Shown: in pieces, positions 37,753 to 64,000 of the stretch
How positions within the stretch are numbered: position 1 is the first letter of the stretch
Layout of the letters: the number at the start of each line of letters is the position of its first letter
Assembly (NCBI GenBank): GCA_963754655.1
Contig: CAVWGN010000001.1
Span: forward strand, 1,856,001-1,920,000
DNA length: 64,000 bases
Direction: 5' to 3'
Source of the DNA: an uncultured Chlamydiae bacterium
GTDB lineage: Bacteria > Chlamydiota > Chlamydiia > Chlamydiales > Parachlamydiaceae
Notes under the pieces: model-generated
What the model saw: only the letters and a program-made list of their open reading frames with translations
The model's database searches: none
Told to the model about the DNA's origin: nothing
Program-made: the position numbers and the translations under genes

Positions 37753-39276
37753 TTAACTTGCTATAAGATTGTAGCAGCCGGTTGAGTCAAACTTTTTTAA
37801 GCTTTTGGGAAGCTTGTCCAACGAGGCTATATTAGTGTATCCTACATTAAGCTTTTCTAGCTTTGAAAAAGACTCATCAAGCTTTTGAAAGGATTCTGCC
37901 GTAAGAGACTCGCATCCCTTTAAGTCAAGCTCTTTTAAGCTTTTGGGGAGCTTGTCTAGGGAGGCTATCGAAGTAGATGCTATATTAAGCTTTTCTAGCA
38001 TTGAAAAGGACTCATCAAGCTTTTGAAAGGATTCTGCTGTAAGAAGCCGGCATCTCTCTAAGTCAAGTTCTTTTAAATTTTTGGGGAGCTTGTCTAGGGA
38101 GGCTATTTCAGTCGATCCTACATTAAGCTTTTCTAGCTTTGAAAAGGACTCATCAAGCTTTTGAAAGGATTCTACTATTGTAAGAGCCATGCATTTGTAT
38201 AAGTTAAGCTCTTTTAAGTTTTTGGGGAGCTTGTCCAGGGAGCCTATGTGAGTGCCTCCTACATTAAGCTTTTCTAGCATTGAAAAGGACTCATCAAGCT
38301 TTTGAAAGGATTCTGCCTTAAGAGAATGGCATGCCGTTAAGTTAAGCTCTTTTAAGCTTTTGGGGAGCTTGTCTAGGGAAGCTATGTGAGTAAATGATAC
38401 ATTAAGCTTTTCTAACTTTGAAAAGGACTCATCAAGCTTTTGAAAGGCTTCTGCCGTAAGAGACCTGCATCCTTCTAAGTTAAGCTCTTTTAAGTTTTTG
38501 GGGAGCTTGTCTAGGGAGGCTATGTCAGTCGATCCTACATTAAGCTTTTCTAGCTTTGAAAAAGAAGATAAATCTAATTTCTCTATTGGAGTAGTGCCTA
38601 ATAGAGTCAGGGATCGAAGATTGGGAAATGCTTGTTGTAATCTTCTGAGTTTTTCATTATCTAAGCTTGTAAAATTGGAGAGATCGAGTGTAGTGATTTC
38701 TAGCTTTGAAAAAGAAGATAAATCTAATTTCTCTATTGGAGTAGTGCCCGATAGAGTCAGGGATCGAAGATTGGGACAGGCTTGTTGTAATCTTCTGAGT
38801 TTTTCATTATCTAAGCTTGTAAAATTGGAGAGATCGAGTGTAGTGATTTCTTCTCCAAATTGAAAGATAGCCTCAAATCTTTGCTTAGGAGAAAGGTTAC
38901 TATCTAACAAGTTAAAAGCTATTAATTTTCCCATAATTTGTGAATAGATGTCCATTGAACCCGCTGCCTCAAGCAACTCAGGATAGCGTATATAATGTGG
39001 AGAAGGATTGTCTAAATACTGCATGATTTGCTTCCAAAGATTTTGATCTTCGGGTTGAATCTTAAGTTGTTGAAGTAAGTTTTTAACTTCCTGTGCAGTT
39101 TCTTGTGAAGACAAAGAAAAGGCTGCTTGTCTTAAAAAATCTTGAATAATGAAATTAATTTTTTCTAAATTTTTCGTTTTATGTGAAGAAACCTTCTCAC
39201 TATTATAAGTGTTGATTAATTCCTTAAAAGAAACTTCGATAGACGAAGGTAAATGGTAAGAATGAGTCGGATCCAT
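37753..39276 (-). CDS. Variable LRR protein, array copy 1 (intact)
   Basis: 46-aa/138-bp units KLEKLNVxxTxIASLDKLPKxLKELxLxxCxxLTAExFQKLDESFS; 150-bp cap duplication 38551-38850. Confidence 0.9.
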   Translation of the reverse strand: MDPTHSYHLPSSIEVSFKELINTYNSEKVSSHKTKNLEKINFIIQDFLRQAAFSLSSQETAQEVKNLLQQLKIQPEDQNLWKQIMQYLDNPSPHYIRYPELLEAAGSMDIYSQIMGKLIAFNLLDSNLSPKQRFEAIFQFGEEITTLDLSNFTSLDNEKLRRLQQACPNLRSLTLSGTTPIEKLDLSSFSKLEITTLDLSNFTSLDNEKLRRLQQAFPNLRSLTLLGTTPIEKLDLSSFSKLEKLNVGSTDIASLDKLPKNLKELNLEGCRSLTAEAFQKLDESFSKLEKLNVSFTHIASLDKLPKSLKELNLTACHSLKAESFQKLDESFSMLEKLNVGGTHIGSLDKLPKNLKELNLYKCMALTIVESFQKLDESFSKLEKLNVGSTEIASLDKLPKNLKELDLERCRLLTAESFQKLDESFSMLEKLNIASTSIASLDKLPKSLKELDLKGCESLTAESFQKLDESFSKLEKLNVGYTNIASLDKLPKSLKKFDSTGCYNLIAS

Positions 39277-39353
39277 ATTTTCTTCTCTCTTTTGATTATG
39301 ATTAAAAATTTAATACAATAATTAATAAATAATTTATTATATTTACAAATGCT

Positions 39354-39382
39354 ATTATACAAACTATTTTGATTTTAAGCGA
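39354..39382 (-). promoter_or_regulatory. Putative sigma70/66-type promoter of LRR gene (similar upstream of the other copies)
   Basis: Minus strand TCGCTT-N17-TATAAT about 80 bp upstream of the ATG. Confidence 0.35.
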
Positions 39383-39601
39383 GTACTAAAAACACTTTTT
39401 ATTTAATTGACATTTGCATTAGATTTATTTTCAACTTAAGATTGATTTAATATCAAATGAATTTAGTAAAAAAATTTGATTTGATATTAAATCTATGGAA
39501 ACAGTTTTCCTTCAAAAGGATTTAACTAAATCGATCATAAAAATGAATAAAAATAAAAAAATCCTGCCTTTTGTTGGCATGAAGATGACCGAATTGCCAG
39601 G

Positions 39602-39918
39602 GTGTTTTTACTAAACATATTTGACACTTGCAGCCCTTCAGGCTGCATGACACAACCCGCTCATAACCAGGGCGTTGCTGGTCTATTGCACTTACAGCCT
39701 TTCAGCTGATAGAGAACCTCAGCTTACAATATTAGACCGCAAGTCTCTATATTTTGGACCTTTTTTATAGACAGCACGTCTAAAAGTAAAATAGGAAATT
39801 TCCTGTATTAGCCGGAAGAGCTTTAAGTGCAATAGACTATGGCAACTCCCTGGGTATGAGCGGGTTGTGTCACGCAGCCTGAAGGGCTGCAAGTGTCAAA
39901 TATTTTAGTAAAAAACAC
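39602..39918. repeat. REPIN-like palindrome family B (array unit 1)
   Basis: GTGTTTTTACTAAACATATTTGACACTTGCAGCCCTTCAGGCTGC... and its inverted copy; internal GCCCTTCAGGC motifs. Confidence 0.85.
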
Positions 39919-40425
39919 TGATTGTTCAACTTTTTCATGAAAATTATTTTTGGTGAATTGAATAATTTCCAAAGCTTTTTTGGAACTTTCTCTTTAACTT
40001 TCATAGCCAATTTAAAGATGATCCTGAAATTTGACCTCAGACACTTTAACACTTTTTTGAACGATAGAATTTAATAAATCATCCATGACTTGCACATTCG
40101 CTTTGGTAATGGAAAAAGAGTGCTTCATATCCTTTATTTTTTACAATAATCAAAGCCTAAAGTAATATTATGTATTTGAATATTAATAAGATAATGATAA
40201 AATATTTATGTGATTAGAATTGCTATTTTTTGTAAAAAATTAGCACCCTAACCAAGGTAAAGCTTCGATTAAATTTTTAAATCATTTAAAATAATCTTGA
40301 ATCCGTTTTCAGACCCATCAGCCATAGGATTTGTTAAAAGATTGCTTAAGTTATTCCATTTATCTGCTCATCACACTTCTTCAATCCAACCTTCCCCCTC
40401 TTTTATAAACAACCATTAAAACCGG
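39919..40425 (-). pseudogene. Deleted remnants of thioredoxin and HD-hydrolase genes
   Basis: Fragments matching 51303-51520 and 36760-37275. Confidence 0.75.
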
Positions 40426-40593: not shown

Positions 40594-42085
40594 CTTGTCA
40601 TTACCCAAATTTTTCAAAAATTTATTATTTTCATTAACTTTGCACCTTCTACAAGATCTATAAGCCTACTCATGCCAAGCCAAAGGGTCTTTAATCCCGG
40701 CATTCCATCACTTTTTCTGTTAATGTGACCTCCTAGCTTCCCGATCGCTAGCGCTACACATTTAACCGTCTTTATCTTCCTTTTAAGATAGGTTTCAAGG
40801 ACTTTTATTTCAAATTGACTAAGTCCGCTTTCTTTTGCGTCGCCATCAGGATTAGTCCTTAAAGATTCTCTGAGATCTACTAATCTAAGTGCAACAATAC
40901 TCATAATCGCAATTGCAGCAAAAAGTCTATGAGCATTTTCTAATTGAAGATCTTCGGCTCTTAATCCACTTTTAAGAGTTTTATGAAAATCTTCTATCAT
41001 CCAACGTAGCGAATAATATTTTACAATAAGATATGCAGATTCAATATTATTTATGCTTAAAGAAGTATATAAAAACCATTCAATCGTACTGCCATCCTCG
41101 GGATCAACGCCCCAAACATGTACTACAGTCACTTGCAGCGTAGGTAATTCCCCAATACTATAACCGGGCCTTGCAGGAGCCCGTAGGGATACTTCTTGCC
41201 AATTTACATTCAATGAAATCGTTCTTTTTGTTGTTCCATTTCTTCCTCTGCGATCAATTGTAGTAGCTCCTATTGGGGGTAATTCTCTTAATGTTTCAAA
41301 CAAACGAATTTCCCAATCGTTATTATCTACACGATCATGTTTGACTCGGATGATATAATCATATCCAGATGCCTGAGTATCCTGAAGAACTTCGTAAATA
41401 TCTGCATTGCGATCACAGACTCTAATCAATCTATTTTGATTACTCTTTGGAGCCTGGTTTTTAAGCATCTTTGACCACAAATCTGTCTCGAGCCCTTGTT
41501 GTCCGTTTCCTTGTTTATGGGTCTTCTCTCTTTTAGGAGGACGCACATAATATTGTTGAGAGGGCAAACCTAAAATTTTTACACAGGGATCTTTTGAAGA
41601 GGTTTTGTTCCTTATTCCTAAAGCAATAGTAGAATGCAAAATAAATCCTTGATCCCCTTTTCTGCCAGAGCCTACAGGACCCAAACCTTCAATTGGTTCT
41701 TGTCCATTCCATTCAAATTCTGAACTATCTTCGATAAGTAAGATATCGCCATGCCAATTTAACATGTTTTGTGTTGCTAAAGCCCGATGGTTTGATTGAA
41801 TGGTATCAGGTGTCATAACATTTTGATCAAGAAGATTATAGGATGCTTTAATATCATACCACTTTGTATAAAGAGAGGAAAAAAATTGTCCTGGATGCAT
41901 AGCTAGTTTTGTTGCCATATCAACTAATCTCCGCGTCCTCCTTTTATCAAATAGCTGAACTTTCCCAAAGTTTTTATAAGCCCACATGCCTGTATCAAAT
42001 TCATATCGTGTTGTATGCATAAATATCTCCTTTGTTGAAAAACATCTATTATACAACAACCTTGAAAAATTTGGGTAATGACAAG
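40594..42085 (-). mobile_element. IS4-family (IS50/Tn5-like) insertion sequence, intact
   Basis: 24-bp TIR CTTGTCATTACCCAAATTTTTCAA; 9-bp TSD GGCATCGCC (40585-40593, 42086-42094). Confidence 0.95.
40614..42020 (-). CDS. IS4-family transposase
   Basis: DKRRTRRL, IEDSS, VCDRNADIYE, YSLRWMIEDFHKTLKSG (YREK), IGKLGGH..RKSDGMPG; SD before ATG 42020. Confidence 0.95.
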   Translation of the reverse strand: MHTTRYEFDTGMWAYKNFGKVQLFDKRRTRRLVDMATKLAMHPGQFFSSLYTKWYDIKASYNLLDQNVMTPDTIQSNHRALATQNMLNWHGDILLIEDSSEFEWNGQEPIEGLGPVGSGRKGDQGFILHSTIALGIRNKTSSKDPCVKILGLPSQQYYVRPPKREKTHKQGNGQQGLETDLWSKMLKNQAPKSNQNRLIRVCDRNADIYEVLQDTQASGYDYIIRVKHDRVDNNDWEIRLFETLRELPPIGATTIDRRGRNGTTKRTISLNVNWQEVSLRAPARPGYSIGELPTLQVTVVHVWGVDPEDGSTIEWFLYTSLSINNIESAYLIVKYYSLRWMIEDFHKTLKSGLRAEDLQLENAHRLFAAIAIMSIVALRLVDLRESLRTNPDGDAKESGLSQFEIKVLETYLKRKIKTVKCVALAIGKLGGHINRKSDGMPGLKTLWLGMSRLIDLVEGAKLMKIINF

Positions 42086-42094
42086 GGCATCGCC

Positions 42095-42305: not shown

Positions 42306-42314
42306 GGCGATGCC

Positions 42315-48610: not shown

Positions 48611-50396
48611 TTAACTTGCTATAAGATTGTAGCAGCCGGTTGAGTCAAACTTTTTAAGCTTTTGGGAAGCTTGTCCAACGAGGCTATATTAGTGTATCCT
48701 ACATTAAGCTTTTCTAGCTTTGAAAAAGACTCATCAAGCTTTTGAAAGGATTCTGCCGTAAGAGACTCGCATCTCTCTAAGTCAAGCTCTTTAAGCTTTT
48801 GGGGGGCTTGTCTAAGGAGGCTATGTCAGTCCCTCTTACATTAAGCTTTTCTAGCATTGAAAAGGACTCATCAAGCTTTTGAAAGGATTCTGCTGTAAGA
48901 AGCCGGCATCTGTCTAAGTCAAGCTCTTTTAAGTTTTTGGGGAGCTTGTCTAGGGAGGCTATGTGAGTCGATCCTAAATCGAGATTTTCTAGCTTTGAAA
49001 AGGACTCATCAAGCTTTTGAAAGGATTCTGCTGTAAGATAATTGCAATACCTTAAGTCAAGCTCTTTTAAGTTTTTGGGGAGCTTGTCTAGAGAGGCTAT
49101 GCGAGTCGATCTTACATTAAGCTTTTCTAGCTTTGAAAAGGACTCATCAAGCTTTTGAAAGGCTTTTGCTGTAAGAGACTCGCCGCCGCATCCCATTAAG
49201 TCAAGCTCTTTTAAGTTTTTGGGGAGCTTGTCTAGGGAGGCTATGCGAGTCGAGCCTACATTAAGCTTTTCTAGCTTTGAAAAGGACTCATCAAGCTTTT
49301 GAAAGGACTTTGCTGTAAGAGACTTGCATACCCTTAAGTCAAGCTCTTTTAAGCTTTTGGGGAGCTTGTCTAGGGAGGCTATGCGAGTCGATCTTACATT
49401 AAGCTTTTCTAGCCTTGAAAAAGACTCATCAAGCTTTTGAAAGGATTCTGCTGTAAGAGACTTGCATTCGGCTAAGTCAAGCTCTTTTAAGCTTTTGGGG
49501 AGCTTGTCTAGGGAGGCTATGCGAGTCGAGCCTACATTAAGCTTTTCTAGCATTGGAAAAGACTCATCAAGCTTTTGAAAGGATTCTGCTGTAAGAGTGC
49601 ATCTCTTTAAGTCAAGCTCTTTTAAGTTGTTGGGGAGCTTGTCTAGGGAGGCTATGTAAGTCCTTCTTACATTAAGCTTTTCTAGCTTTGGAAAAGACTC
49701 ATCAAGCTTCTGAAAAGCTTCTGCTGTAAGATAATAGCAGCGCGCTAAGTTAAGCTCTTTTAAGCTTTTGGGGAGCTTGTCTAGGGATGCTATGTCAGTC
49801 GATTCTACACTAAGCTTTTCTAGGTTTGAAAAAGAGGATAAATCTAATTTCTCTATTGGAGTAGTGCCTGATAAAGTCAGAGATCGAAGATTGGGACAGG
49901 CTTGTTGTAATCTTCTGAGTTTTTCATTATCTAAGCTTGTAAAATCAGGAAGATCGAGTGTATTGATTTCTTCTCCAAATTGCAGGGCAGCCTCAAATGT
50001 TTGCTCAGGAGAAGGGTTACTATCTAACAACTCAAAAGCTATTACTTTTCCCATCATTTGTGAATAGATGTCCATTGAACCCGCTGCCTCAAGCAGCTCA
50101 GGGTAGCGAATATCATGTGGAGAAGGATTGTCTAAATACTGCATGATTTGCTTCCAAAGATTTTGATCTTCGGGTTGAATCTTAAGTTGTTGAAGTAAGT
50201 TTTTAACTTCCTGTGCAGTTTCTTGTGAAGGCAAAGAAAAGGCTGCTTGTCTTAAAAAATCTTGAATAATAAGATTAATTTTTTTTAAATTTTTCGTTTT
50301 ATCTGAAGAAACCTTTTCATTATTATAAGTGTTGATTAATTCCTTAAAAGAAACTTCGATAGACGAAGGTAAATGGTAAGAATGATTCGGATCCAT
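48611..50396 (-). pseudogene. Variable LRR protein, array copy 2 (ORF ends 48777 by frameshift; homologous end at 48611)
   Basis: Single-T deletions near 48790 and 48651 relative to copies 1 and 5; may be real or homopolymer errors. Confidence 0.8.
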
Positions 50397-50719
50397 ATTT
50401 TCTTCTCTCTTTTGATTATGATTAAAAATTTAATAAAATAATTAATAAATAATTTATTATGTTTACAAATGCTATTATACAAACTATTTTAATTTTTAAG
50501 CGAGTATTAAAAACAATTTTTATTTAGTTGACATTTGTATTAGATTTATTTTCAACTTGAGATTGATTTAATATCAAATGAATTTAGTAAAAAAATTTGA
50601 TTTGATATTAAATCTATGGAAACAGTTTTTCCTTCAAAAATATTTAACTAAATCGATCATAAAAATGAATAAAAACAAAAAATCCTGCCTTTTGTTGGCA
50701 TGAAGATGATCCGAATTGC

Positions 50720-51011
50720 CAGGGTGTTTTTACTAAACATATTTGACACTTGCAGCCCTTTAGGCTGCATGACACAACCCGCTCATAACCGAGGCGTTGT
50801 TCTAGTCTATTGCACTTACAGCCTTTCAGGCTGATAAAGAACCTCAGCTATAATATTAGACCACAAGTCTAAAAGTACAATAGGAAATTCCCTGCATTAG
50901 CCTGAAGGGCTTTAAGTGCAATAGACCATGGTAAAGCCCTTGTTATAAGTGGTTTATGTCATGCAGCCTGAAGGGCTGCAAGTATCAAATATGTTTAGTA
51001 AAAACACCCTG
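50720..51011. repeat. REPIN-like palindrome family B (unit 2)
   Basis: CAGGGTGTTTTTACTAAACATA...TATGTTTAGTAAAAACACCCTG. Confidence 0.85.
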
Positions 51012-51024: not shown

Positions 51025-51519
51025 TTATTGAATTTCTTGAAAGAAATCTTTGATCTTTGCTTCACATTCTTCTTTTGACATATATCCTACAAGGCGAGAA
51101 ACAACCTTTCCTTTATACATTAAGATAGTTGTCGGATAGGCTTTGACCTTTAAAAAGTTGACTAATAACGTCTCTTCATCAGCATCAATTTTAGCAAATT
51201 GGCATTCTTTCTTATATTTTTCATGTAATGTTTCAAAAATGGGAGCAAAATATCTACAAGGACGACACCAGTCTGCATAGACATCAATAATGAAGACCTT
51301 ATCTGATTGTTCAACTTCTTCATGAAAATTATTTTTGGTGAATTGAATAATTTCCAAAGCTTTTTGGAACTATCTCTTTCTCTTAAACTTTCATAGCCAA
51401 TTTGAAGATGATCCTGAAATTTGACCTCAGACACTTTAACGCTTTTTTGAACGATAGAATTTAATAAATCATCCATGACTTGCACATTCCGCTTTGGTAA
51501 TGGAAAAAGAGTGCTTCAT
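51025..51519 (-). pseudogene. Thioredoxin (WCRPC) with frameshifted N-terminal extension
   Basis: Trx domain 51025..51357 intact (TTG start); upstream SD+ATG at 51519 disconnected by indels. Confidence 0.75.
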
Positions 51520-51661
51520 ATCCTTTATTTTTCACAATAATCAAAGCCTAAAGTAGTATTATTTATTTGAATATTAAAAAGATAATGATAAAATATTTAT
51601 GTGATTAGAATTGCTATTTTTTGTACAAAATTAACACCCTAAACCCACGGTAAAGCTTCGA

Positions 51662-52240
51662 TTAAATTTTTAAATCATTTAAAATAATCTTGAATCCGTT
51701 TTCAGACCTATCAGCCATAGGATTTGTTAAAAGATCGCTTAAGTTATCCCATTTATCTGCTAATTTAATTTGAGCAGCTCCTGCTGATTTATAAGGAGCT
51801 GTCATAATTTGGAGCTTTTTGCGCTCCTCTTTAGGAAGAGTTTTATCATCTGTGACTTCTTGTATAAAAGCAGTTATTCGCTCTCCAAATAAATCTAGAA
51901 GTTCTTGATAAGAAGTTTTCAGTATCTTCCAATGTATCATGGAGTAAACCTGCGATAATGATAGAGGGATCTCGAATGCTTCCTACCGTGACCAAGTGAT
52001 GCGCGACTGAAAGAGGATGGACGACATAAGGTGTTTGTGCCTCATCTTTGCGCAGTTGCTTGTGATGTTTATGAGCAGCAAATTCGACTGCTTTTAGAAT
52101 GAGATGTACATCTTCTTCAATCCAACCTTCCCCTCTTTCATAAACAGCCATTAAAACCTTTTGAAATTGAATAGACTTTTCTTGTACCTGAAAGAGAGGA
52201 GGGCCAAAATATTCTTTCACAACCTCATCTAACCTTTTAG
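51662..52240 (-). pseudogene. HD hydrolase pseudogene (5'-deleted, frameshifted)
   Basis: Near-identical to 36705..37409; extra T near 51916; 5' end lost by deletion joining it to the LRR3 3' end. Confidence 0.9.
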
Positions 52241-52246
52241 GTTGAG

Positions 52247-53536
52247 TCAAACTTTTTTAAGCTTTTCTAGCTTTGAAAAGGACTCATTAAGCTTTTGAAA
52301 GGATTCTGCTGTAAGAAGCCGGCATCTCTCTAAATCAAGCTCTTTTAAGTTTTTGGGGAGCTTGTCTAGGGAGGCTATGTCAGTAAATCCTAAATTAAGC
52401 TTTTCTAGCTTTGAAAAGGACTCATCAAGCTTTTGAAAGGCTTCTGCTGTAAGATAATTGCAATAGCTTAAGTCAAGCTCTTTTAAGTTTTTGGGGAGCT
52501 TGTCTAGAGAGGCTATGTTAGTCGATTTTACATTAAGCTTTTCTAGCTTTGAAAAGGACTCATCAAGCTTTTGAAAGGCTTCTGCCGTAAGAGACGACCT
52601 GCATCCTTCTAAGTTAAGCTCTTTTAAGTTTTTGGGGAGCTTGTCCAGGGAGGTTATATTAGTGAATCCTACATTAAGCTTTTCTAGCTTTGAAAAGGAC
52701 TCATCAAGCTTCTGAAAAGCTTCTGCTGTAAGAGACTTGCATACCATTAAGTTGAGCTCTTTTAAGTTTTTGGGGAGCTTGTCTAGGGAGGTTATATTAG
52801 TGAATCCTACATTAAGCTTTTCTAGCTTTGGAAAGGACTCATCAAGCTTTTGAAAGGATTCTGCTGTAAGAGACTCGCATCCGGCTAAGTTAAGCTCTTT
52901 TAAGTTTTTGGGGAGCTTTTCTAGGGAGGTTATGTTAGTCGATTCTACATTAAGCTTTTCTAGGTTTGAAAAAGAGGATAAATCTAATTTCTCTATTGGA
53001 GTAGTGCCTGATAAAGTCAGAGATCGAAGATTGGGACAGGCTTGTTGTAATCTTCTGAGTTTTTCATTATCTAAGCTTGTAAAATCAGGAAGATCGAGTG
53101 TATTGATTTCTTCTCCAAATTGCAGGGCAGCCTCAAATGTTTGCTCAGGAGAAGGGTTACTATCTAACAACTCAAAAGCTATTACTTTTCCCATCATTTG
53201 CGAATAGATGTCCATTGAACCCGCTGCCTCAAGCAACTCAGGATAGCGAATATCATGTGGAGAAGGATTGTCTAAATACTGCATGATTTGATTCCAAAGA
53301 TTTTGATCTTCGGGTTGAATGTTAAGTTGTTGAAGTAAGTTTTTAACTTCCTGTGCATTTTCTTGTGAAGGCAAAGAAAAGGCTGCTTGTCTTAAAAAAT
53401 CTTGAATAATAAGATTAATTTTTTCTAAATTTTTCGTTTTATCTGAAGAAACCTTCTCACTATTATAAGTGTTGATTAATTCCTTAAAAGAAACTTCGAT
53501 AGACGAAGGTAAATGGTAAGAATGACTCGGATCCAT
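52247..53536 (-). CDS. Variable LRR protein, array copy 3 (C-terminally truncated)
   Basis: Same units; a 50-bp deletion between TTAAGCTTTT repeats removes the terminal cap. Confidence 0.85.
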   Translation of the reverse strand: MDPSHSYHLPSSIEVSFKELINTYNSEKVSSDKTKNLEKINLIIQDFLRQAAFSLPSQENAQEVKNLLQQLNIQPEDQNLWNQIMQYLDNPSPHDIRYPELLEAAGSMDIYSQMMGKVIAFELLDSNPSPEQTFEAALQFGEEINTLDLPDFTSLDNEKLRRLQQACPNLRSLTLSGTTPIEKLDLSSFSNLEKLNVESTNITSLEKLPKNLKELNLAGCESLTAESFQKLDESFPKLEKLNVGFTNITSLDKLPKNLKELNLMVCKSLTAEAFQKLDESFSKLEKLNVGFTNITSLDKLPKNLKELNLEGCRSSLTAEAFQKLDESFSKLEKLNVKSTNIASLDKLPKNLKELDLSYCNYLTAEAFQKLDESFSKLEKLNLGFTDIASLDKLPKNLKELDLERCRLLTAESFQKLNESFSKLEKLKKV

Positions 53537-53860: not shown

Positions 53861-54149
53861 CAGGGTGTTTTTACTAAACATATTTGACACTTGCAGCCCT
53901 TTAGGCTGCATGACACAACCCGCTCATAACCGAGGCGTTGTTCTAGTCTATTGCACTTACAGCCTTTCAGGCTGATAAAGAACCTCAGCTATAATATTAG
54001 ACCATAAGTCTAAAAGTACAATAGGAAATTCCCTGCATTAGCCTGAAGGGCTTTAAGTGCAATAGACCAGGGCAACGCGCTGGGTATAAGTGGTTTGTGT
54101 CATGCAGCCTGAAGGGCTGCAAGTGTCAAATATTTTTAGTAAAAAACAC
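53861..54149. repeat. REPIN-like palindrome family B (unit 3), followed by deleted trx remnant
   Basis: As unit 1. Confidence 0.85.
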
Positions 54150-54532
54150 TGATTGTTCAACTTCTTCATGAAAATTATTTTTGGTGAATTGAATAATTTC
54201 CAAAGCTTTTTTGGAACTTTCTCTTTCTCTTAAACTTTTATAGCCAATTTGAAGATGATCCTGAAATTTGACCTCAGACACTTTAACGCTTTTTTGAACG
54301 ATAGAATTTAATAAATCATCCATGACTTGCACATTCCGCTTTGGTAATGGAAAAAGAGTGCTTCCATGGCTTCCTATTCTCGCTTCTCCTATTTGGCATA
54401 AAATGTTCATGAGCAAAATATGCAGTTAGTGCTTGCAATTGATCCCATTTAAACAGGACCTTTAATATTTTCAAGGCTAGTACTCTAACTTTTCTCTCAG
54501 TAAGGCTTTTTTTAAAGAAATCGGTGCTTGAA

Positions 54533-57171
54533 TTAACTTGCTATAAGATTGTAGCAGCCGGTTGAGTCAAACTTTTTTAAGCTTTTGGGAAGCTTGTCCA
54601 ACGAGGCTATATTAGTGAATCCTACATTAAGCTTTTCTAGCTTTGAAAAAGACTCATCAAGCTTTTGAAAGGATTCTTCTGTAAGAGCCATGCAGTTAAC
54701 TAAGTCAAGCTCTTTTAAGTTTTTGGGGAGCTTGTCTAGTGATGCTATGTGAGTCGATCCTACATTAAGCTTTTCTAGCTTTATGAAAAAGACTCATCAA
54801 GCTTTTGAATGGATTCTGTTTTAAGGGAATGCAACCGATAGAGAGGTCAAAATGGATTTAACTAAATTATATTGCAGTGTAGATGATTTTTGGAAGTCAT
54901 TTAAACAAGAATGGGATAAGCATTTGATTGATAATGGCAAAACAAAGCGAGGGCCTGAACCAGAATTATCAATTCCAGAGATGATGACAATTGTGATTTT
55001 ATTTCATCAATCGAATTATCGAACATTTAAATATTTTTATGACTACGTTTGTAAGTATTTACGAAGAGATTTTCCAAAATTAATTAGCTATAGCCGTTTT
55101 GTTTATTTAATGAAGAATTTATTTATTCCATTATTTGCCTACCTTTTAGAGAGAAGAGGAGAGATAACAGGAATTGCTTTTATTGATTCTACATCTCTAG
55201 ATGTTTGCCATAATAAACGCATTAAAAGAAATAAAGTTTTCAAAGGTTTAGCCAAACGTGGAAAAACGACCTCTGGATGGTTCTATGGATTTAAATTACA
55301 TTTGATTATTAATGAGAAAGGAGAAATTTTAGCCTTTCAGCTGACTCCTGGGAATATTGCGGATGTATCTGTTGCTGAAACGTTATCAAAAGGAATTTTT
55401 GGAAAGTTATTCGGTGACAAAGGATATATTTCGGCAGAACTTGCAAAAACAGCTTTTAAAACAAGGACTTGAGTTGTTTACAACTATAAGATCAAATATG
55501 AAGCAAAAGCTCATGAAGTTAACAGATAGAATTCTTCTTAGAAAACGAGCAATAATTGAAACAGTAAATGATCAATTAAAAAATATTTCTCAAATTGAAC
55601 ATACACGTCATAGAAGTGCTGGAAACTTTTTGATCAATCTATTAGCTGGTATTGTAGCTTATACTCATCAGCAAAAAAAGCCATCTATAAATTTAGCTGA
55701 GCAAGATCGTATGTTATTAATGGCTGCATAAAAAACCCAAAACTCAGGTTACATTAAGCTTTTCTAGCTTTGAAAAAGACTCATCAAGCTTTTGAATGGA
55801 TTCTGTTGTAAGAGACCTGCATCCGAGTAAGCTAAGCTCTTTTAAGTTTTTGGGGAGCTTGTCTAGTGATGCTATGTTAGTCAATCCTACATTAAGCTTT
55901 TCTAGCTTTGAAAAAGACTCATCAAGCTTTTGAAATGATTCTGCCGTAAGAGAATTGCAATACGATAAGTCAAGCTTTTTTAAGCTTTTGGGGAGCTTGT
56001 CTAAGGAAGTTATGTCTGTTGATCTTCTTACATTAAGCTTTTCTAGCTTTGAAAAAGACTCATCAAGCTTTTGAAAGGATTGTGCTGTAAGAAGCTGGCA
56101 TCTTTCTAAGTCAAGCTCTTTTAAGCTTTTGGGGAGCTTGTCTAGGGAGGTTATATTAGTGAATCCTACATTAAGCTTTTCTAGCTTTGAAAAGGACTCA
56201 TCAAGTTTTTGAAAGGATTCTGTTGTAAGAGAATAGCATTTCGCTAAGTTAAGTTCTTTTAAGTTTTTGGGGAGCTTGTCTAGGGAGGCTATGTCAGTCG
56301 ATCCTACATTAAGCTTTTCTAGCTTTGAAAAAGACTCATCAAGCTTTTGAAGGGATTCTGCCGTAAGAGACCTGCATAAGTTTAAGTTAAGCTCTTTTAA
56401 GTTTTTGGGGAGCTTGTCTAGGGAGGCTATGTCAGTCGATCCTACATAAAGCTTTTCTAGCTTTGAAAAAGACTCATCAAGCTTTTGAAAGGATTCTGCC
56501 GTAAGAGACCTGCATAAGTTTAAGTTAAGCTCTTTTAAGTTTTTGGGGAGCTTGTCTAGGGAGGCTATATTAGTTAATTCTACATTAAGCTTTTCTAGCT
56601 TTGAAAAAAAGGATAAATCTAATTTCTCTATTGGAGTAGTGCCTGATAAAGTCAGAGATCGAAGATTGGGACAGGCTTGTTGTAATCTTCTGAGTTTTTC
56701 ATTATCTAAGCTTGTAAAATCAGGAAGATTGAGTGTATTGATTTCTTCTCCAAATTGCAGGGCAGCCTCAAATGTTTGCTCAGGAGAAGGGTTACTATCT
56801 AACAACTCAAAAGCTATTACTTTTCCCATCATTTGCGAATAGATGTCCATTGAACCCGCTGCCTCAAGCAACTCAGGATAGCGAATATCATGTGGAGAAG
56901 GATTGTCTAAATACTGCATGATTTGCTTCCAAAGATTTTGATCTTCGGGTTGAATCTTAAGTTGTTGAAGTAAGTTTTTAACTTCCTGTGCAGTTTCTTG
57001 TGAAGGCAAAGAAAAGGCTGCTTGTCTTAAAAAATCTTGAATAATAAGATTAATTTTTTTTAAATTTTTCGTTTTATCTGAAGAAACCTTTTCATTATTA
57101 TAAGTGTTGATTAATTCCTTAAAAGAAACTTCGATAGACGAAGGTAAATGGTAAGAATGATTCGGATCCAT
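54533..57171 (-). pseudogene. Variable LRR protein, array copy 4, interrupted by IS982
   Basis: ORF 55744..57171; remainder (VGSTH..LVNCMA..VGFTN..CYNLIAS*) at 54533-54820. Confidence 0.9.
54821..55749 (+). mobile_element. IS982-family element, frameshifted transposase (54852..55472 / 55357..55731)
   Basis: [40 protein letters not shown]; right end AACTCAGGT; extra A near 55447; left TIR not recognisable. Confidence 0.9.
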
Positions 57172-57494
57172 ATTTTCTTCTCTCTTTTGATTATGATTAA
57201 AAATTTAATAAAATAATTAATAAATAATTTATTATGTTTACAAATGCTATTATACAAACTATTTTAATTTTTAAGCGAGTATTAAAAACAATTTTTATTT
57301 AGTTGACATTTGTATTAGATTTATTTTCAACTTGAGATTGATTTAATATCAAATGAATTTAGTAAAAAAATTTGATTTGATATTAAATCTATGGAAACAG
57401 TTTTTCCTTCAAAAATATTTAACTAAATCGATCATAAAAATGAATAAAAACAAAAAATCCTGCCTTTTGTTGGCATGAAGATGATCCGAATTGC

Positions 57495-57786
57495 CAGGGT
57501 GTTTTTACTAAACATATTTGACACTTGCAGCCCTTTAGGCTGCATGACACAACCCGCTCATAACCGAGGCGTTGTTCTAGTCTATTGCACTTACAGCCTT
57601 TCAGGCTGATAAAGAACCTCAGCTATAATATTAGACCACAAGTCTAAAAGTACAATAGGAAATTCCCTGCATTAGCCTGAAGGGCTTTAAGTGCAATAGA
57701 CCAGGGTAACTCCGTGGTTATAAGCCGTTTGTGTCATGTAGCCTGAAGAGCTGCAAGTATCAAATATGTTTAGTAAAAACACCCTG
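57495..57786. repeat. REPIN-like palindrome family B (unit 4)
   Basis: As unit 2. Confidence 0.85.
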
Positions 57787-57799
57787 ATTGAATTGCTTT

Positions 57800-58293
57800 T
57801 TATTGAATTTCTTGAAAGAAATCTTTGATCTTTGCTTCACATTCTTCTTTTGACATATATCCTACAAGGCGGGAAACAACTTTTCCTTTATACATTAAGA
57901 TAGTTGTCGGATAGGCTTTGACCTTTAAAAAGTTGACTAATAACGTCTCTTCATCAGCATCAATTTTAGCAAATTGGCATTCTTTCTTATATTTTTCATG
58001 TAATGTTTCAAAAATGGGAGCAAAATATCTACAAGGACGACACCAGTCTGCATAGACATCAATAATGAAGGCCTTGTCTGATTGTTCAACTTCTTCATGA
58101 AAATTATTTTTGGTGAATTGAATAATTTCCAAAGCTTTTTGGAACTATCTCTTTCTCTTAAACTTTCATAGCCAATTTAAAGATGATCCTGAAATTTGAC
58201 CTCAGACACTTTAACACTTTTTTGAACGATAGAATTTAATAAATCATCCATGACTTGCACATTCGCTTTGGTAATGGAAAAAGAGTGCTTCAT
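57800..58293 (-). pseudogene. Thioredoxin (WCRPC) with disrupted N-terminal extension
   Basis: Trx domain 57800..58132; upstream MKHSFSITKANVQVMDD... has an in-frame TAA and a frameshift. Confidence 0.75.
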
Positions 58294-58435
58294 ATCCTTT
58301 ATTTTTCACAATAATCAAAGCCTAAAGTAGTATTATTTATTTGAATATTAAAAAGATAATGATAAAATATTTATGTGATTAGAATTGCTATTTTTTGTAC
58401 AAAATTAACACCCTAAACCCACGGTAAAGCTTCGA

Positions 58436-59063
58436 TTAAATTTTTAAATCATTTAAAATAATCTTGAATCCGTTTTCAGACCTATCAGCCATAGGATTTG
58501 TTAAAAGATCGCTTAAGTTATCCCATTTATCTGCTAATTTAATTTGAGCAGCTCCTGCTGATTTATAAGGAGCTGTCATAATTTGGAGCTTTTTGCGCTC
58601 CTCTTTAGGAAGAGTTTTATCATCTGTCACTTCTTGTACAAAAGCAGTTATTCGCTCTCCGAATAAATCTAGAAGTTCTTGATAAGAAGTTTTCAGTATC
58701 TTCCAATGTATCATGGAGTAAACCTGCGATAATGATAGAGGGATCTCGAATGCTTCCTACCGTGACCAAGTGATGCGCGACTGAAAGAGGATGGACGACA
58801 TAAGGTGTTTGTGCCTCATCTTTGCGCACTTGCTTGTGATGTTTATGAGCAGCAAATTCGACTGCTTTTAGACTGAGACGTACATCTTCTTCAATCCAAC
58901 CTTTCCCTCTTTCATAAACAACCATTAAAACCTTTTGAAATTGAATAGACTTTTCTTGTATCTGAAAGACAGGAGGGCCAAAATATTCTTTCACAACCTC
59001 ATCTAACCTTTTAAAATGCTGCTGTATTCTTTGAAGAGTAGAGGGATGGGGACGAATAAGCAT
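58436..59063 (-). pseudogene. HD hydrolase pseudogene
   Basis: Same +T frameshift (GAAGTTTTCAG) and altered 3' end as the 51662 copy. Confidence 0.9.
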
Positions 59064-59406: not shown

Positions 59407-61200
59407 TTAACTTGCTATAAGATTGTAGCAGCCGGTTGAGTCAAACTTTTTTAAGCTTTTGGGAAGCTTGTCCAACGAGGCTATATTAGTGTATCCTACA
59501 TCAAGCTTTTCTAGCTTTGAAAAAGACTCATCAAGCTTTTGAAAGGATTCTGCCGTAAGAGACTCGCATCTCTGTAAGTCAAGCTCTTTTAAGCTTTTGG
59601 GGAGCTTGTCTAAGGAGGCTATATCACTGAATCCTACATTAAGCTTTTCTAGCATTGAAAAGGACTCATCAAGCTTTTGAAAGGCTTCTGCTGTAAGAAG
59701 CCAGCATCTCTCTAAGTCAAGCTCTTTTAAGCTTTTGGGGAGCTTGTCTAGGGAGGCTATTCCAGTGAATCCTACATCAAGCTTTTCTAGCTTTGAAAAG
59801 GACTCATCAAGCTTTTGAAAGGACTCTAAGGAATCTATTGTAAGATCCGTGCATTTATATAAGTTAAGCTCTTTTAAGTTTTTGGGGAGCTTGTCTAGGG
59901 AGCCTATGTGAGTCGATCCTAAATCGAGCTTTTCTAGCTTTGAAAAGGACTCATCAAGCTTTTGAAAGGATTCTGCTGTAAGATAATTGCAATACCTTAA
60001 GTCAAGCTCTTTTAAGTTTTTAGGGAGCTTGTCTAGGGAGATTATATTAGTGTATCCTACATTAAGCTTTTCTAGCTTTGAAAAGGACTCATCAAGCTTT
60101 TGAAAGGATTCTGCCGTAAGAGACTCGCATCTCTCTAAGTCAAGCTCTTTTAAGTTGTTGGGGAGCTTGTCTAGGGAGGCTATGTGAGTAAATCCTAAAC
60201 TAAGCTTTTCTAGCTTTGGAAAAGACTCATCAAGCTTCTGAAAAGCTTCTGCTGTAAGATATGTGCATCCGGCTAAGTTAAGTTCTTTTAAGTTGTTGGG
60301 GAGCTTGTCTAGGGAGGTTATGTTAGTCGAGCCTACATTAAGCTTTTCTAGCATTGAAAAGGACTCATCAAGCTTTTGAAAGGATTCTGCCTTAAGAGAA
60401 TGGCATGCCGTTAAGTCAAGCTCTTTTAAGTTGTTGGGGAGCTTGTCTAGGGAGGCTATGTAAGTAAATCCTAAATTAAGCTTTTCTAGCTTTGGAAAAG
60501 ACTCATCAAGCTTTTGAAAGGATTCTGCTGTAAGATAATAGCAGCGCGCTAAGTTAAGCTCTTTTAAGCTTTTGGGGAGCTTGTCTAGGGATGCTATGTC
60601 AGTCGATTCTACACTAAGCTTTTCTAGGTTTGAAAAAGAGGATAAATCTAATTTCTCTATTGGAGTAGTGCCTGATAAAGTCAGAGATCGAAGATTGGGA
60701 CAGGCTTGTTGTAATCTTCTGAGTTTTTCATTATCTAAGCTTGTAAAATCAGGAAGATCGAGTGTAGTGATTTCTTCTCCAAATTGCAGGGCAGCCTCAA
60801 ATGTTTGCTCAGGAGAAGGGTTACTATCTAACAACTCAAAAGCTATTACTTTTCCCATAATTTGTGAATAGATGTCCATTGAACCCGCTGCCTCAAGCAA
60901 CTCAGGATAGCGAATATCATGTGGAGAAGGATTGTCTAAATACTGCATGATTTGATTCCAAAGATTTTGATCTTCGGGTTGAATCTTAAGTTGTTGAAGT
61001 AAGTTTTTAACTTCCTGTGCAGTTTCTTGTGAAGGCAAAGAAAAGGCTGCTTGTCTTAAAAAATCTTGAATAATAAGATTAATTTTTTCTAACTTTTTCG
61101 TTTTATCTGAAAAAACCTTCTCATTATTATAAGTGTTGATTAATTCCTTAAAAGAAACTTCGATAGACGAAGGTAAATGGTAAGAATGATTCGGGTCCAT
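59407..61200 (-). CDS. Variable LRR protein, array copy 5 (intact, 597 aa)
   Basis: Eight Cys-containing repeats, full C-cap KKFDSTGCYNLIAS. Confidence 0.9.
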   Translation of the reverse strand: MDPNHSYHLPSSIEVSFKELINTYNNEKVFSDKTKKLEKINLIIQDFLRQAAFSLPSQETAQEVKNLLQQLKIQPEDQNLWNQIMQYLDNPSPHDIRYPELLEAAGSMDIYSQIMGKVIAFELLDSNPSPEQTFEAALQFGEEITTLDLPDFTSLDNEKLRRLQQACPNLRSLTLSGTTPIEKLDLSSFSNLEKLSVESTDIASLDKLPKSLKELNLARCYYLTAESFQKLDESFPKLEKLNLGFTYIASLDKLPNNLKELDLTACHSLKAESFQKLDESFSMLEKLNVGSTNITSLDKLPNNLKELNLAGCTYLTAEAFQKLDESFPKLEKLSLGFTHIASLDKLPNNLKELDLERCESLTAESFQKLDESFSKLEKLNVGYTNIISLDKLPKNLKELDLRYCNYLTAESFQKLDESFSKLEKLDLGSTHIGSLDKLPKNLKELNLYKCTDLTIDSLESFQKLDESFSKLEKLDVGFTGIASLDKLPKSLKELDLERCWLLTAEAFQKLDESFSMLEKLNVGFSDIASLDKLPKSLKELDLQRCESLTAESFQKLDESFSKLEKLDVGYTNIASLDKLPKSLKKFDSTGCYNLIAS

Positions 61201-61524
61201 ATTTTCTTCTCTCTTTTGATTATGATTAAAAATTTAATACAATAATTAATAAATAATTTATTATGTTTACAAATGCTATTATACAAACTATTTTAATTTT
61301 TAAGCGAGTACTAAAGACATTTTTTATTTAATTGACATTTGTATTAGATTTAATTTCAACTTGAGATTGATTTAATATCAATCAATTTAATAAAAAAATT
61401 GATTCGATATTAAATCTATGGAAGGAAATAGTTTTTCTTTCAAAAAAGTTTATCTAAATTGATCATAAAAATGAACAAAAATAAAAAATGCTGTCTTTTG
61501 TTAGCATAAAGATGACCGAATTGC

Positions 61525-61814
61525 CAGGGTGTTTTTACTAAACATATTTGACACTTGCAGCCCTTCAGGCTGTATGACACAAGCCACTCATAACCAAGGC
61601 GTTATCTTAGTCTATTGCACTTACAGCCTTTCAGGCTGATAGAGAACCTCAGCTTACAATATTAGACCGCAAGTCTAAAAGTAAAATAGGAAGTTCCCTG
61701 CATTAGCCTGAAGGGCTTTAAGTGCAATATACCAGGACAACGCCCTGGGTATGAGTGGGTTGTGTCACGCAGCCTGAAGGGCTGCAAGTGTCAAATATTT
61801 TTAGTAAAAAACAC
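61525..61814. repeat. REPIN-like palindrome family B (unit 5), followed by deleted trx remnant
   Basis: As units 1 and 3. Confidence 0.85.
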
Positions 61815-62140
61815 TGATTGTTCAACTTCTTCATGAAAATTATTTTTGGTGAATTGAATAATTTCCAAAGCTTTTTTGGAACTATCTCTTTCTCTTAAAC
61901 TTTCATAGCCAATTTGAAGATGATCCTGAAATTTGACCTCAGACACTTTAACGCTTTTTTGAACGATAGAATTTAATAAATCATCCATGACTTGCACATT
62001 CCGCTTTGGTAATGGAAAAAGAGTGCTTCCATGGCTTCCTATTCTCGCTTCTCCTATCTGGCATAAAATGTTCATGAGCAAAATATGCAGTTAGTGCAAT
62101 TGATCCCATTTAAATAGGACCTTTAATATTTTCAAGGCTA

Positions 62141-62979
62141 GGGAGCGTACCTAAAAGATTTAAAATAATAACTATTATGATTTATAATTTTCTCTGATAA
62201 AACAAGGGGGAAATTTGAATGAGTAGGATAGTATTAACTAATGAAAGATGGATAAAAATAAAACCTTTATTGCCAAAAGAACGAGGATATTGGGGCAGAC
62301 CAAGTCGGCCTCATCGTAAGATTTTAGAAGGCATTATTTGGATTTTAAGAACAGGAGCCGCTTGGAGGGATCTACCACCCAAGTATGGTCCTTGGAGCAC
62401 ATGTTATAATCGCTTTAATCATGGACAAAGGCTGGAATCTGGCAAACGATTTGGCAAGCTTTAAAAGATGAAATTGACGAAGAAAATTACTCTGTAGACA
62501 GCTCAATTGTTGAAGCGCATCAAGATGCTTGTAGGATAAAAAAAAAGCCGAAGAAGTCATGGGAAAATCAAGGGCCGGAACAACCACAAAAATTCATGCA
62601 GTAACAGATGGATTAGGTCGTTGTATTGATTTTATCTTGACAGAAGGTCAAGTACACGAGAGCACTCAAATGAAGCTTTTACTCAGTGGAAAAAGTCCAC
62701 AAAATGTTATAGCTGATAAAGCTTACGACTCAAATGAAATCAGAAATTTTATAGAAAAGATGGGAAGTCAAGCAGTCATACCCAGCAAAGTATCAAGAGC
62801 TGAACTAATTGAACATGATAAACATATCTACAGAGAGCGTTGCTTGGTAGAAAATTTTTTTCAGTTTATAAAACGATTTAGGCGTATTAAAATAAGATAC
62901 GAAATGAAAGCTCAAAATTATGCAGGAATGTTGACGATCGCTTGTATTATACAATGGTTAATCTTTTAGGTACGCTCCC
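62141..62979 (+). mobile_element. IS5-family copy 2 (extra 1-bp deletion in ORF A)
   Basis: Same TIRs; inserted in CTAG with TA duplication; AATCATGG versus AATCGATGG near 62420. Confidence 0.95.
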
Positions 62980-63033
62980 TAGTACTCTAACTTTTCTCTC
63001 AGTAAGGCTTTTTTAAAGAAATCGGTGCTTGAA

Positions 63034-64000
63034 TTAACTTGCTATAAGATTGTAGCAGCCGGTTGGGTCAAACTTTTTTAAGCTTTTGGGAAGCTTGTCC
63101 AACGAGGCTATATTAGTGTATCCTACATTAAGCTTTTCTAGCTTTGAAAAAGACTCATCAAGCTTTTGAAAGGATTCTGCCGTAAGAGACTCGCATCTCT
63201 CTAAGTCAAGCTCTTTTAAGCTTTTGGGGAGCTTGTCTAAGGAGGTTATATTAGTGAATCCTACATTAAGCTTTTCTAGCTTTGAAAAGGACTCATCAAG
63301 CTTTTGAAAGGATTCTGCTGTAAGAAGCCGGCATCTGTCTAAGTCAAGCTCTTTTAAGTTTTTGGGGAGCTTGTCTAGGGAGGCTAGGCGAGTCGATCCT
63401 AAATTGAGCTTTTTTAAGTTTTTGGGGAGCTTGTCTAGGGAGGCTATGTGAGTCGATCCTAAATCGAGCTTTTCTAGCTTTGAAAAGGACTCATCAAGCT
63501 TTTGAAAGGATTCTGCTGTAAGATAATTGCAATACCTTAAGTCAAGCTCTTTTAAGTTTTTGGGGAGCTTGTCTAGGGAGATTATATTAGTGAATCCTAC
63601 ATTAAGCTTTTCTAGCTTTGAAAAGGACTCATCAAGTTTTTGAAAGGATTCTGCCGTAAGAGACTTGCATCTCTCTAAGTCAAGCTCTTTTAAGCTTTTG
63701 GGGAGCTTGTCTAGGGAGGCTATATGAGTCGATGCTAAATCGAGCTTTTCTAGCTTTGGAAAGGACTCATCAAGCTTTTGAAAGAATTCTGCTGTAAGAG
63801 ACTTGCATCCGGCTAAGTCAAGCTCTTTTAAGTTGTTGGGGAGCTTGTCTAGGGAGGTTATATTAGTGAATCCTACATTAAGCTTTTCTAGCTTTGAAAA
63901 GGACTCATCAAGCTTTTGAAAGAATTCTGCTGTAAGAGACTTGCATCCGGCTAAGTCAAGCTCTTTTAAGTTGTTGGGGAGCTTGTCTAGGGAGGTTATG
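63034..64000 (-). CDS. Variable LRR protein, array copy 6 (3' part; start beyond window)
   Basis: Manual reading: LAGCKS, LAGCKS, LERCKS, LRYCNY, LDRCRL, LERCES modules, ending CYNLIAS* at 63034. Confidence 0.85.
   Translation of the reverse strand, partial: ITSLDKLPNNLKELDLAGCKSLTAEFFQKLDESFSKLEKLNVGFTNITSLDKLPNNLKELDLAGCKSLTAEFFQKLDESFPKLEKLDLASTHIASLDKLPKSLKELDLERCKSLTAESFQKLDESFSKLEKLNVGFTNIISLDKLPKNLKELDLRYCNYLTAESFQKLDESFSKLEKLDLGSTHIASLDKLPKNLKKLNLGSTRLASLDKLPKNLKELDLDRCRLLTAESFQKLDESFSKLEKLNVGFTNITSLDKLPKSLKELDLERCESLTAESFQKLDESFSKLEKLNVGYTNIASLDKLPKSLKKFDPTGCYNLIAS

Follow-up and report, generated by a model that had tools for sequence, protein, structure and literature searches.

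Does the recurrence of identical variable modules in different genes of a bacterial leucine-rich repeat (LRR) array reflect a dedicated system for generating protein diversity, or ordinary recombination among tandem duplicates? The locus that raises this question lies in a 64,000-nt stretch (hereafter the window; positions 1,856,001-1,920,000 of contig CAVWGN010000001.1) of the 3.16-Mb genome of an uncultured Chlamydiae bacterium of the family Parachlamydiaceae, assembled in two contigs. An earlier, sequence-only reading of the window proposed that the conserved scaffold of these genes is a recombination substrate and that broken copies could act as donor cassettes, as in antigenic variation of the vls or pilS type or in the assembly of variable lymphocyte receptors (VLR). 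Our analysis favours a different answer, namely that the locus is probably a young, lineage-specific tandem array of eight LRR paralogs evolving by ordinary homologous recombination among its members.

The paralogs number eight in the whole genome (c1-c8), all in one orientation and within a single 37-kb stretch. The six copies counted earlier are those present in the window, where c1-c6 occupy the minus strand from 37.7 kb to the window end, c6 extending across the boundary; c7 and c8 are positioned just beyond it. The copies in the window are listed below (window coordinates are used throughout).

37753..39276, minus strand: c1, 507 aa, intact; units EGCRS, TACHS, YKCMA, ERCRL and KGCES, then the C-terminal cap
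48614..50396, minus strand: c2, with an open reading frame (ORF) at 48777..50396, 539 aa
52247..53536, minus strand: c3, 429 aa; a 3' deletion joins it to a 5'-truncated HD gene
54533..54837, minus strand: C-terminal remnant of c4 behind an insertion sequence (IS), made up of a partial and a full unit plus the cap
55744..57171, minus strand: c4, 475 aa, interrupted by an IS982-like insertion
59407..61200, minus strand: c5, 597 aa, intact, with 8 units and the cap
63034..64000, minus strand: c6, 568 aa, intact; its 5' end is past the window, at window coordinate 64740

Each paralog consists of a 195-aa N-terminal part, which terminates in two cap LRRs, followed by 4-8 copies of a 46-aa unit and, in undamaged copies, by a short C-terminal cap (LKKFDSTGCYNLIAS). 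The unit (138 nt) is not a single but a double LRR, composed of a 26-aa repeat (LKELDLxxCxxLTAESFQKLDESFSK) and a 20-aa repeat (LEKLNVGxTxIASLDKLPKN). When a hidden Markov model (HMM) of the unit was run against the 3.16-Mb genome, all 59 matches fell inside the array, in the eight genes or the c4 remnant, and none of them was a stand-alone LRR cassette. Pfam assigns the proteins to LRR families (LRR_4, LRR_6 and LRR_1) above the gathering threshold, most strongly to LRR_4 (E=5e-32; 109.5 bits for c5 and 92.4 bits for c1 against a cut-off of 27). For the N-terminal domain, Pfam searches with c1 and c5 returned, apart from LRR types, chance-level matches only, and an Atlas search with residues 1-145 retrieved nothing; in an NCBIfam search with the whole protein no family reached its cut-off. 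The AlphaFold2 (AF2) model (predicted local distance difference test, pLDDT, 83; predicted template-modelling score, pTM, 0.73) predicts a regular solenoid, with one strand per half-unit, behind a helical head. Foldseek with this whole model, in which the N-terminal domain was not queried separately, found only generic long LRR ectodomains, those of TLR7/8/9/13. The GC content of the array is 34-39%, and the N-terminal domains of the paralogs are ~85-97% identical to each other.

Copies 2, 3 and 4 had been described as broken, which is correct as to their 3' ends only, the 5' region, ATG and N-terminal domain being kept; indeed, a start codon and the 195-aa N-terminal domain persist in all 8 copies. 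The 3' lesions are accidents without relation to one another, comprising A-run frameshifts, two different deletions and one IS. In c2 the frame is lost via two 1-nt deletions, one in an A4 run and one in an A6 run, behind which the eighth unit and the cap are intact to ~48614; these frameshifts could be either genuine or homopolymer errors. Copies c3 and c7 are each fused to an HD gene, by two different deletions. Upstream of the genes, c1-c7 have in common a conserved region of at least 400 nt, and that of c8 is alignable only in part. A promoter scan was too weak to use (58 sigma-70-like sites versus 42.8 +/- 7.0 in shuffles); the same scan placed a TTGATA-18-GAAAAT site ~150-180 nt upstream of c2, c3 and c4 and detected none upstream of c5. 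The c5 upstream region carries, at -390..-110 (window 61310-61590), ~25 private substitutions absent from every other copy, in contrast to the c5 coding scaffold, which from +434 is identical to that of c2.

The ten motif claims of the sequence-only reading all proved accurate when checked against the sequences of the named copies. Thus, LTACHSLKAESFQKLDESFSMLEKLNVG is present in c1 (residue 313) and c5 (residue 263), HIGSLDKLPKNLKELNLYKC in c1 and c5, LRYCNYLTAES and LDLGSTHI in c2, c5 and c6, LARCYY in c2 and c5 (residue 217 in each), LDRCRLL in c2 and c6, LERCRLL in c1 and c3 (additionally twice in c7, outside the window) and LSYCN in c3 and c4 (additionally in c7), while the adjacent duplicates are LNLCRS in c4 and LAGCKS in c6. 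The sharing extends to the DNA level, since 138-nt units are 0-2 nt apart in five cross-copy sets (c2u8/c6u8, c3u3/c7u3, c2u6/c5u5/c6u5, c3u4/c7u4 and c1u5/c5u8/c2u8). Identical modules therefore do occur in several paralogs, but the further assertion that they occupy different positions does not stand as worded: most of the displacement is an index shift from unit gain or loss. Besides LARCYY, LRYCNY lies at the same residue (401) in c5 and c6, and the 50 residues separating LTACHS in c1 (313) from LTACHS in c5 (263) equal an internal duplication in c1. An alignment-free search for maximal exact inter-array matches of at least 100 nt gave ten, of which four join the same unit index, five are shifted with their order kept relative to shared neighbours or the C-terminal end, and one conflicts in order, preceding the TACHS unit in c1 and following it in c7:

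38416..38562, minus strand: out-of-order 147-nt exact match (EGCRS) between c1 (B half of u0 and A half of u1) and c7 units 2-3

The portrayal of c5 as a mosaic of c1 and c2 is half right, c5 sharing at least as much with c6.

That the paralogs exchange sequence, as the sequence-only reading supposed, is borne out by the non-repeat scaffold (400 nt upstream and 633 nt coding). Among its 37 informative sites 48% of pairs are incompatible, and the pairwise homoplasy index (PHI) is 0.295, compared with 0.480 +/- 0.043 after permutation (0/2000 permutations as low; p<=0.0005). A GENECONV-style permutation test was applied to c2-c7 (76 polymorphic sites, 15 pairs), c1 being left out because its private differences near the internal duplication inflate the runs of other pairs. 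Three pairs gave significant tracts, namely c2-c5 (21 concordant sites, +434 to the scaffold end, global p=0.0002), c2-c4 (46 concordant sites, -400 to +292, global p=0.006) and c3-c5 (global p=0.046); the remaining 12 of the 15 pairs were not significant. It follows from these tracts that the 5' part of c2 equals that of c4 and its 3' scaffold equals that of c5. Two identical tracts in the window are:

50103..50796, minus strand: c2=c4 identical tract, 694 nt, spanning -400 to +294 with respect to the start codon; its counterpart in c4 is 56878-57571
37251..37847, minus strand: c1=c5 identical tract, 597 nt, covering the last half-unit, cap, stop, spacer and HD 5' end

Despite their 694 identical nucleotides, c2 and c4 have no common unit closer than 11 differences. 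Around the 597-nt tract c1 and c5 show 8 differences across 1060 nt, and their 5' scaffolds differ by 8%, c1 having the most divergent scaffold among c1-c7 (67-83 differences in ~1033 nt). Another identical run, of 345 nt, is found between c3 and c7. All three of these runs (c2=c4, c3=c7 and c1=c5) adjoin regions with 5-15% difference in the same pairs.

The repeat units tell a similar story, PHI for 42 of them giving p=0.0025. In a maximum-likelihood (ML) tree of 45 units, the copy label needs 33 changes, against a mean of 31.3 for shuffled labels, and of the 8 well-supported inner branches (out of 41) seven unite units from different copies; units thus group by type and not by gene, in keeping with the exchange proposed earlier. 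Patch types of the two half-units are combined in different ways: A1 is found with B3 or B4, A2 with B0 or B2, and A0 with B0, B1 or a unique B. In terms of motifs, RYCNY/SYCNY as an A type is paired with two different B types, ERCES with GF/YTNII or GYTNIA, and ERCRL with at least five B types, although a strict four-gamete square (two A types each with the same two B types) is absent from the module map. Types also recur within genes: c7 has ERCRL twice, and c5 and c6 each have ERCES twice. Several features are signs of unequal exchange. Neighbouring units are duplicated in c4 (units 1-2 differ at 2 positions in 138 nt) and in c6, the N-terminal cap LRRs of c1 are tandemly duplicated over 50 aa, a 20-aa half-unit stands alone in c6, and c1 lacks three units that c5 has between TACHS and YKC. 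Concerted evolution by ectopic gene conversion among the tandem paralogs is therefore well supported.

Within the unit, 71% of the diversity falls in only 39% of the columns, those of two patches at nt 13-36 and nt 88-117 (nucleotide diversity, pi, 0.28 and 0.19, versus 0.06 elsewhere in the unit), and the stretches between the patches are near-invariant, synonymous sites included. The hypervariable codons occupy equivalent sites in both LRRs (7, 8, 10 and 11 in the first; 33, 34, 36 and 38 in the second), corresponding to positions 7, 8, 10 and 11/12 of LxxLxLxxC/TxL, which are predicted to lie immediately after the modelled beta-strand; positions 2, 3 and 5 of the motif are conserved. The variable nucleotides are not restricted to adenine positions. 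The units of c4 stand apart, at 9-13 nt from any unit elsewhere. The ratio of nonsynonymous to synonymous polymorphism (pN/pS) is 1.5 in the hypervariable codons, a circular value as these codons were picked for high pN, and 0.17 in all others; whole units, on the basis of 16 closest, non-independent pairs, give 0.96, and the N-terminal domain gives 0.59. It is plausible that the diversity of the patches is kept by diversifying selection on a ligand-binding surface, which the eight variable positions per 46-aa unit may predict.

On our favoured explanation, unequal crossing-over would lead to gain and loss of both units and whole genes, while ectopic gene conversion would keep the flanks, the scaffold and the unit framework near-identical. 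The two short patches per unit would stay diverse and move between copies within conversion tracts, which would account for identical variable modules in more than one paralog. In the positional homologues c2, c4 and c6 the flanks are near-identical and the module sets differ, a contrast that we would attribute to homogenization of the flanks while selection keeps the arrays different; alternatively, the arrays may be rearranged much faster than the flanks mutate, and both processes probably contribute. The locus would thus probably be a clean, ordinary case of concerted evolution combined with probable diversifying selection. Its interest lies in a single-nucleotide view of how a bacterial LRR family may diversify, with everything homogenized except a stripe of residues beside the beta-strands, which recombination moves. 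As products of a presumably intracellular bacterium, the proteins may be host-directed and effector-like, to judge by the family type, a neighbouring gene for an LRR protein of the ribonuclease inhibitor (RI) type (42572-43873) and distant relatives in Chlamydiota/Neochlamydia records.

Several observations weigh against this explanation. Sites under selection that have been substituted repeatedly can inflate the PHI signal of the units. Nine of the ten long exact matches are colinear, so that much of the module sharing is explained by common descent and unit loss, without conversion, and shared B types such as GFTNIT may represent an unchanged ancestral state. The selection signal is weak, considering the whole-unit pN/pS and the circularity of the value for the hypervariable codons. 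As for a host-directed role, NCBIfam scores for the LRR families of type III effectors fall far short of the cut-offs (the best, XopAE, has 67.9 bits versus 600); the XopAE match covers the LRR region only, and the proteins do not qualify as members of XopAE, GogB or SspH2. Finally, everything comes from a single assembly, in which misjoins in a 95%-identical tandem array are possible.

Exchange between copies would be superfluous if, after recent serial duplication, the copies had changed through point mutation and the loss of units alone, with selection driving fast substitution in the patches. The colinearity of the long matches fits such a history, as do the three shared motifs at the same residue position and the youth of the flanks (0-5% divergence), but it cannot yield 0 differences over 597-694 nt beside 5-15% tracts in one and the same pair. 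Nor does it explain the 48% of incompatible site pairs with their significant clustering, the identity of c2 to c4 in the 5' part and to c5 in the 3' scaffold, the EGCRS segment that c1 has in common with c7 and yet out of order with TACHS, or the near-identical flanks of positional homologues with unrelated module sets, and we regard it as very improbable. A different concern is that the mosaics were created during assembly, through chimeric joins or consensus polishing across 93-99% identical repeats, and the frameshifts by homopolymer errors. Each of the two c2 frameshifts stems from the loss of one base in an A run (A4 and A6, respectively), an error typical of long reads, and the array has periods of 3.5 kb and 7 kb. 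On the other hand, the genome is in only 2 contigs, mosaic boundaries do not coincide with repeat-unit boundaries, and an HD frameshift is common to two copies and hence inherited. Apparently independent reads bear on the matter to some extent: array words were found in three sequencing runs, all from one soil-metagenome study, one of which contained 11% of the sampled words. From it came 33 short pieces of contig, several of which equal the window sequence; they include no joints inside the array and leave most repeats uncovered. Fragments from this run, which may be the assembly's own source, match the array exactly, for example over 289 nt at 50115-50403 and, with one gap, over 398 nt at 61769-62167. 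An artefactual origin of the mosaics thus appears extremely improbable, and recombination among real paralogs remains our preferred account.

It remains to be considered whether the recombination is programmed. In vls, pilE/pilS and VLR, conserved framework DNA flanks short variable segments, partial or defective copies are clustered, and segmental conversion moves the segments; these systems combine a single expression site with promoterless truncated cassettes and dedicated cis or trans factors. A G-quadruplex (G4) motif upstream of pilE promotes conversion, whereas the lamprey VLR gene, incomplete in the germline, acquires its missing part from LRR cassettes at its flanks by copy-choice, a process that involves an AID/APOBEC-like deaminase. 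Diversity-generating retroelements, in turn, place a reverse transcriptase and a template repeat next to a variable repeat. The array resembles vls of Borrelia, pilE/pilS of Neisseria and lamprey VLR in its framework-flanked variable segments, clustered defective copies and segmental conversion, and differs from them in that every copy is a gene with a complete 5' part and its own upstream region and no dedicated factor was found among those sought (G4, simple-sequence repeat (SSR), reverse transcriptase). Specifically, no G4 motif or SSR occurs at window coordinates 36000-74000, where vls-type inverted repeats were not specifically sought, and PF00078 (reverse transcriptase) has no match in the genome at E<=0.001, while control genomes matched. 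With no reverse transcriptase in the genome and with variable nucleotides that are not adenine-limited, a diversity-generating retroelement can be excluded. Assembly of the VLR type does not apply either, c1, c5 and c6 being complete genes and stand-alone LRR cassettes being absent; a deaminase was not searched for. The combination of one expression locus with silent cassettes devoid of promoter and 5' coding sequence, which defines vls/pilS systems, was not found, nor was a cis element of the G4 kind.

A generator of this type would use partly defective neighbours as donors and, through frequent segmental conversion, rewrite one or a few of the LRR genes that are expressed, so that the surface with which a host-interaction protein binds would change within a population. 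Conversion tracts do exist, the patches are framed by near-invariant DNA of ~50 nt and ~30 nt that could provide homology arms, and all copies share one locus and one orientation. Defective copies are kept beside intact ones, and near-identical tracts link the two kinds (142 nt between c2 and c6, 147 nt between c7 and c1), so the donor role suggested earlier for broken copies is possible. The cassette system itself is not what the locus looks like: there is no promoterless, 5'-truncated cassette, the upstream region is conserved in c1-c7, the 3' defects are heterogeneous, module order is mostly colinear, and the passenger HD and thioredoxin genes are degrading, as expected of passive segmental duplication. 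We accordingly consider a programmed generator decidedly unlikely. A related reading, in which the array is a standing combinatorial library whose patches (two per unit, 18-30 nt each, framed by invariant DNA) are reassorted by RecA-type segmental conversion between intact and defective neighbours, at a rate high enough to produce variants within the symbiont population, strikes us as unlikely. If true, the array would be the bacterial equivalent of VLR/vls diversification, directed at an LRR protein with which an amoeba-associated bacterium targets its host; likewise, if conversion were frequent within populations, an intracellular symbiont would possess a diversity generator of an unusual kind.

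How does an array shaped by ordinary recombination compare with known systems? Plant resistance-gene clusters contain tandem LRR paralogs that undergo unequal crossing-over and ectopic conversion, vary in repeat number, and bear hypervariable exposed LRR residues on a conserved framework. The array shares with them the tandem LRR paralogs, exchange between members, repeat-number variation and hypervariable residues on a conserved framework. It is unlike them in being bacterial, haploid and without meiosis, in its N-terminal domain, and in being much smaller and younger; furthermore, the whole xxLxLxx face varies in the plant proteins and positions 7, 8, 10 and 11/12 in the array. By analogy, these nucleotide-binding site (NBS)-LRR and Cf-type clusters (e.g. 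PMC3113787, PMC6771003, PMC3492116) appear to be the closest match in evolutionary mode.

Closer in taxonomy are the NEX1 and PEX1 families of Parachlamydiaceae, which are described by Domman et al. 2014 (PMC4209131) as large, lineage-specific LRR families in tandem arrays, with F-box, RING/U-box or BTB heads, members 45-64% identical, and an evolution that fits birth and death with marginal recombination signals. On that description, the array is like them in comprising lineage-specific tandem LRR genes of variable repeat number and presumed host-interaction role, and unlike them in its N-terminal domain without Pfam match, its ~85-97% identity and its strong conversion. No F-box, RING/U-box or BTB domain was found by Pfam in c1 or c5, nor anything in Atlas for residues 1-145, and the proteins are accordingly not assigned to NEX1 or PEX1. 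The lgr genes of Protochlamydia amoebophila, according to Eugster et al. 2007 (PMC2216083), arose by recent serial duplication and contain 28-residue LRRs that were concatenated adjacently. Within that account, they and the array have in common recent serial LRR-gene duplication in one organism only and growth of arrays by adjacent concatenation; the lgr genes, however, have RI-like LRRs of 28 residues and are large, GC-rich and dispersed, whereas the array has a 26+20 unit and 34-39% GC and is compact. Set beside these accounts, concerted evolution in the array is apparently stronger than in NEX1/PEX1. As the Parachlamydiaceae families treated in PMC4209131 are older, with marginal recombination, the array perhaps represents an early, concerted phase of such an expansion.

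Relatives are few. Searches of protein, genome and metagenome collections brought up no sister strain, and the genome-contig search no relative of the N-terminal domain. In a set of 41 related genomes that included the array's own, the only other genome with matches was a congeneric one, where they are partial and 42-45% identical; of the three congeneric genomes, this one alone has matches, and they are weak. It encodes several family members within ~20 kb (G002:C1:475313-494188; L004, L006 and L008) with the same 46-aa double-LRR architecture and N-terminal hydrophobic segments, their units being strongly diverged from each other. In a set of 5.8 billion proteins the best protein from another genome is 40-41% identical. 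Two exact patterns of 45 and 22 letters, taken from the unit's invariant part, had no match in the metagenome contigs, and no RNA runs with array words were listed.

The LRR genes were not duplicated alone. Self-BLAST defines a basic segment that consists of the upstream region, an LRR gene, a spacer, an HD-domain hydrolase gene and a thioredoxin gene, with periodicities of 3.5 kb and 7 kb along the array. A two-gene super-unit of ~7 kb occurs three times, as (c7,c6), (c5,c4) and (c3,c2), with c1 and c8 at the edges; its spacers show 0-5 nt differences per 100 nt in most windows and <=9 at the ends. A deletion variant of the segment lacks HD and most of thioredoxin. These passengers are located as follows:

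36705..37409, minus strand: HD-domain gene (SpoT/RelA hydrolase-like), the sole intact copy, co-duplicated with the LRR genes
51642..52250, minus strand: HD copy 3' of c3, frameshifted and 5'-truncated
58416..59063, minus strand: HD copy 3' of c5, with the same frameshift as the 51642-52250 copy
51025..51357, minus strand: thioredoxin gene, intact
57800..58132, minus strand: thioredoxin gene, intact
54126..54416, minus strand: deletion variant of the segment, in which the LRR 3' spacer is joined to thioredoxin sequence (upstream region plus codons 1-19)
61791..62081, minus strand: second copy of the deletion variant, upstream of c5

All HD copies other than the intact one are frameshifted or truncated. 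Genome-wide there are 4 intact thioredoxin copies, two of them outside the window, with 98-100% aa identity, and 2 truncated ones.

Mobile elements are found within and next to the array, together with one unrelated LRR gene:

54838..55747, plus strand: IS982-like element (DDE_Tnp_1_3) inside c4, the only full copy in the genome
62138..62983, plus strand: IS5-like element (DUF4096 and DDE), adjoining the c6 3' end; 23 full copies genome-wide
40614-42059: intact IS4/Tn5-like transposase gene between c1 and c2
45219-46390: second IS4-like copy, split by an IS5-like insertion at 44409-45253 (nested IS)
42572-43873, minus strand: RI-type LRR protein of 433 aa between c1 and c2, unrelated to the array family, with ITDQGLAHLKNL repeats (LRR_6)

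The IS982-like element takes the place of ~60 nt between two similar adjacent units of c4 and is therefore not a simple insertion with a short target duplication; the units flanking it (54720-54837 and 55748-55845) both carry a rare TESIQ variant of the AESFQ motif. IS5-like elements adjoin both c6 and c7, and three of the 23 copies (99% identity) lie in or beside the array. The RI-type LRR protein has an N-terminal hydrophobic stretch and an LPLDIWQNII motif reminiscent of an F-box, for which no F-box Pfam match was obtained. Downstream of c2, on the plus strand at 46585-48280, there are two ORFs of 103 aa (coiled-coil-like) and 439 aa, which have no match in Pfam or NCBIfam and may belong to another mobile element. 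Upstream of the array, on the minus strand at 28748-30931, a 727-aa protein combines an ice-binding-protein-like N-terminal region (NCBIfam, below the cut-off) with DUF11 repeats (NCBIfam).

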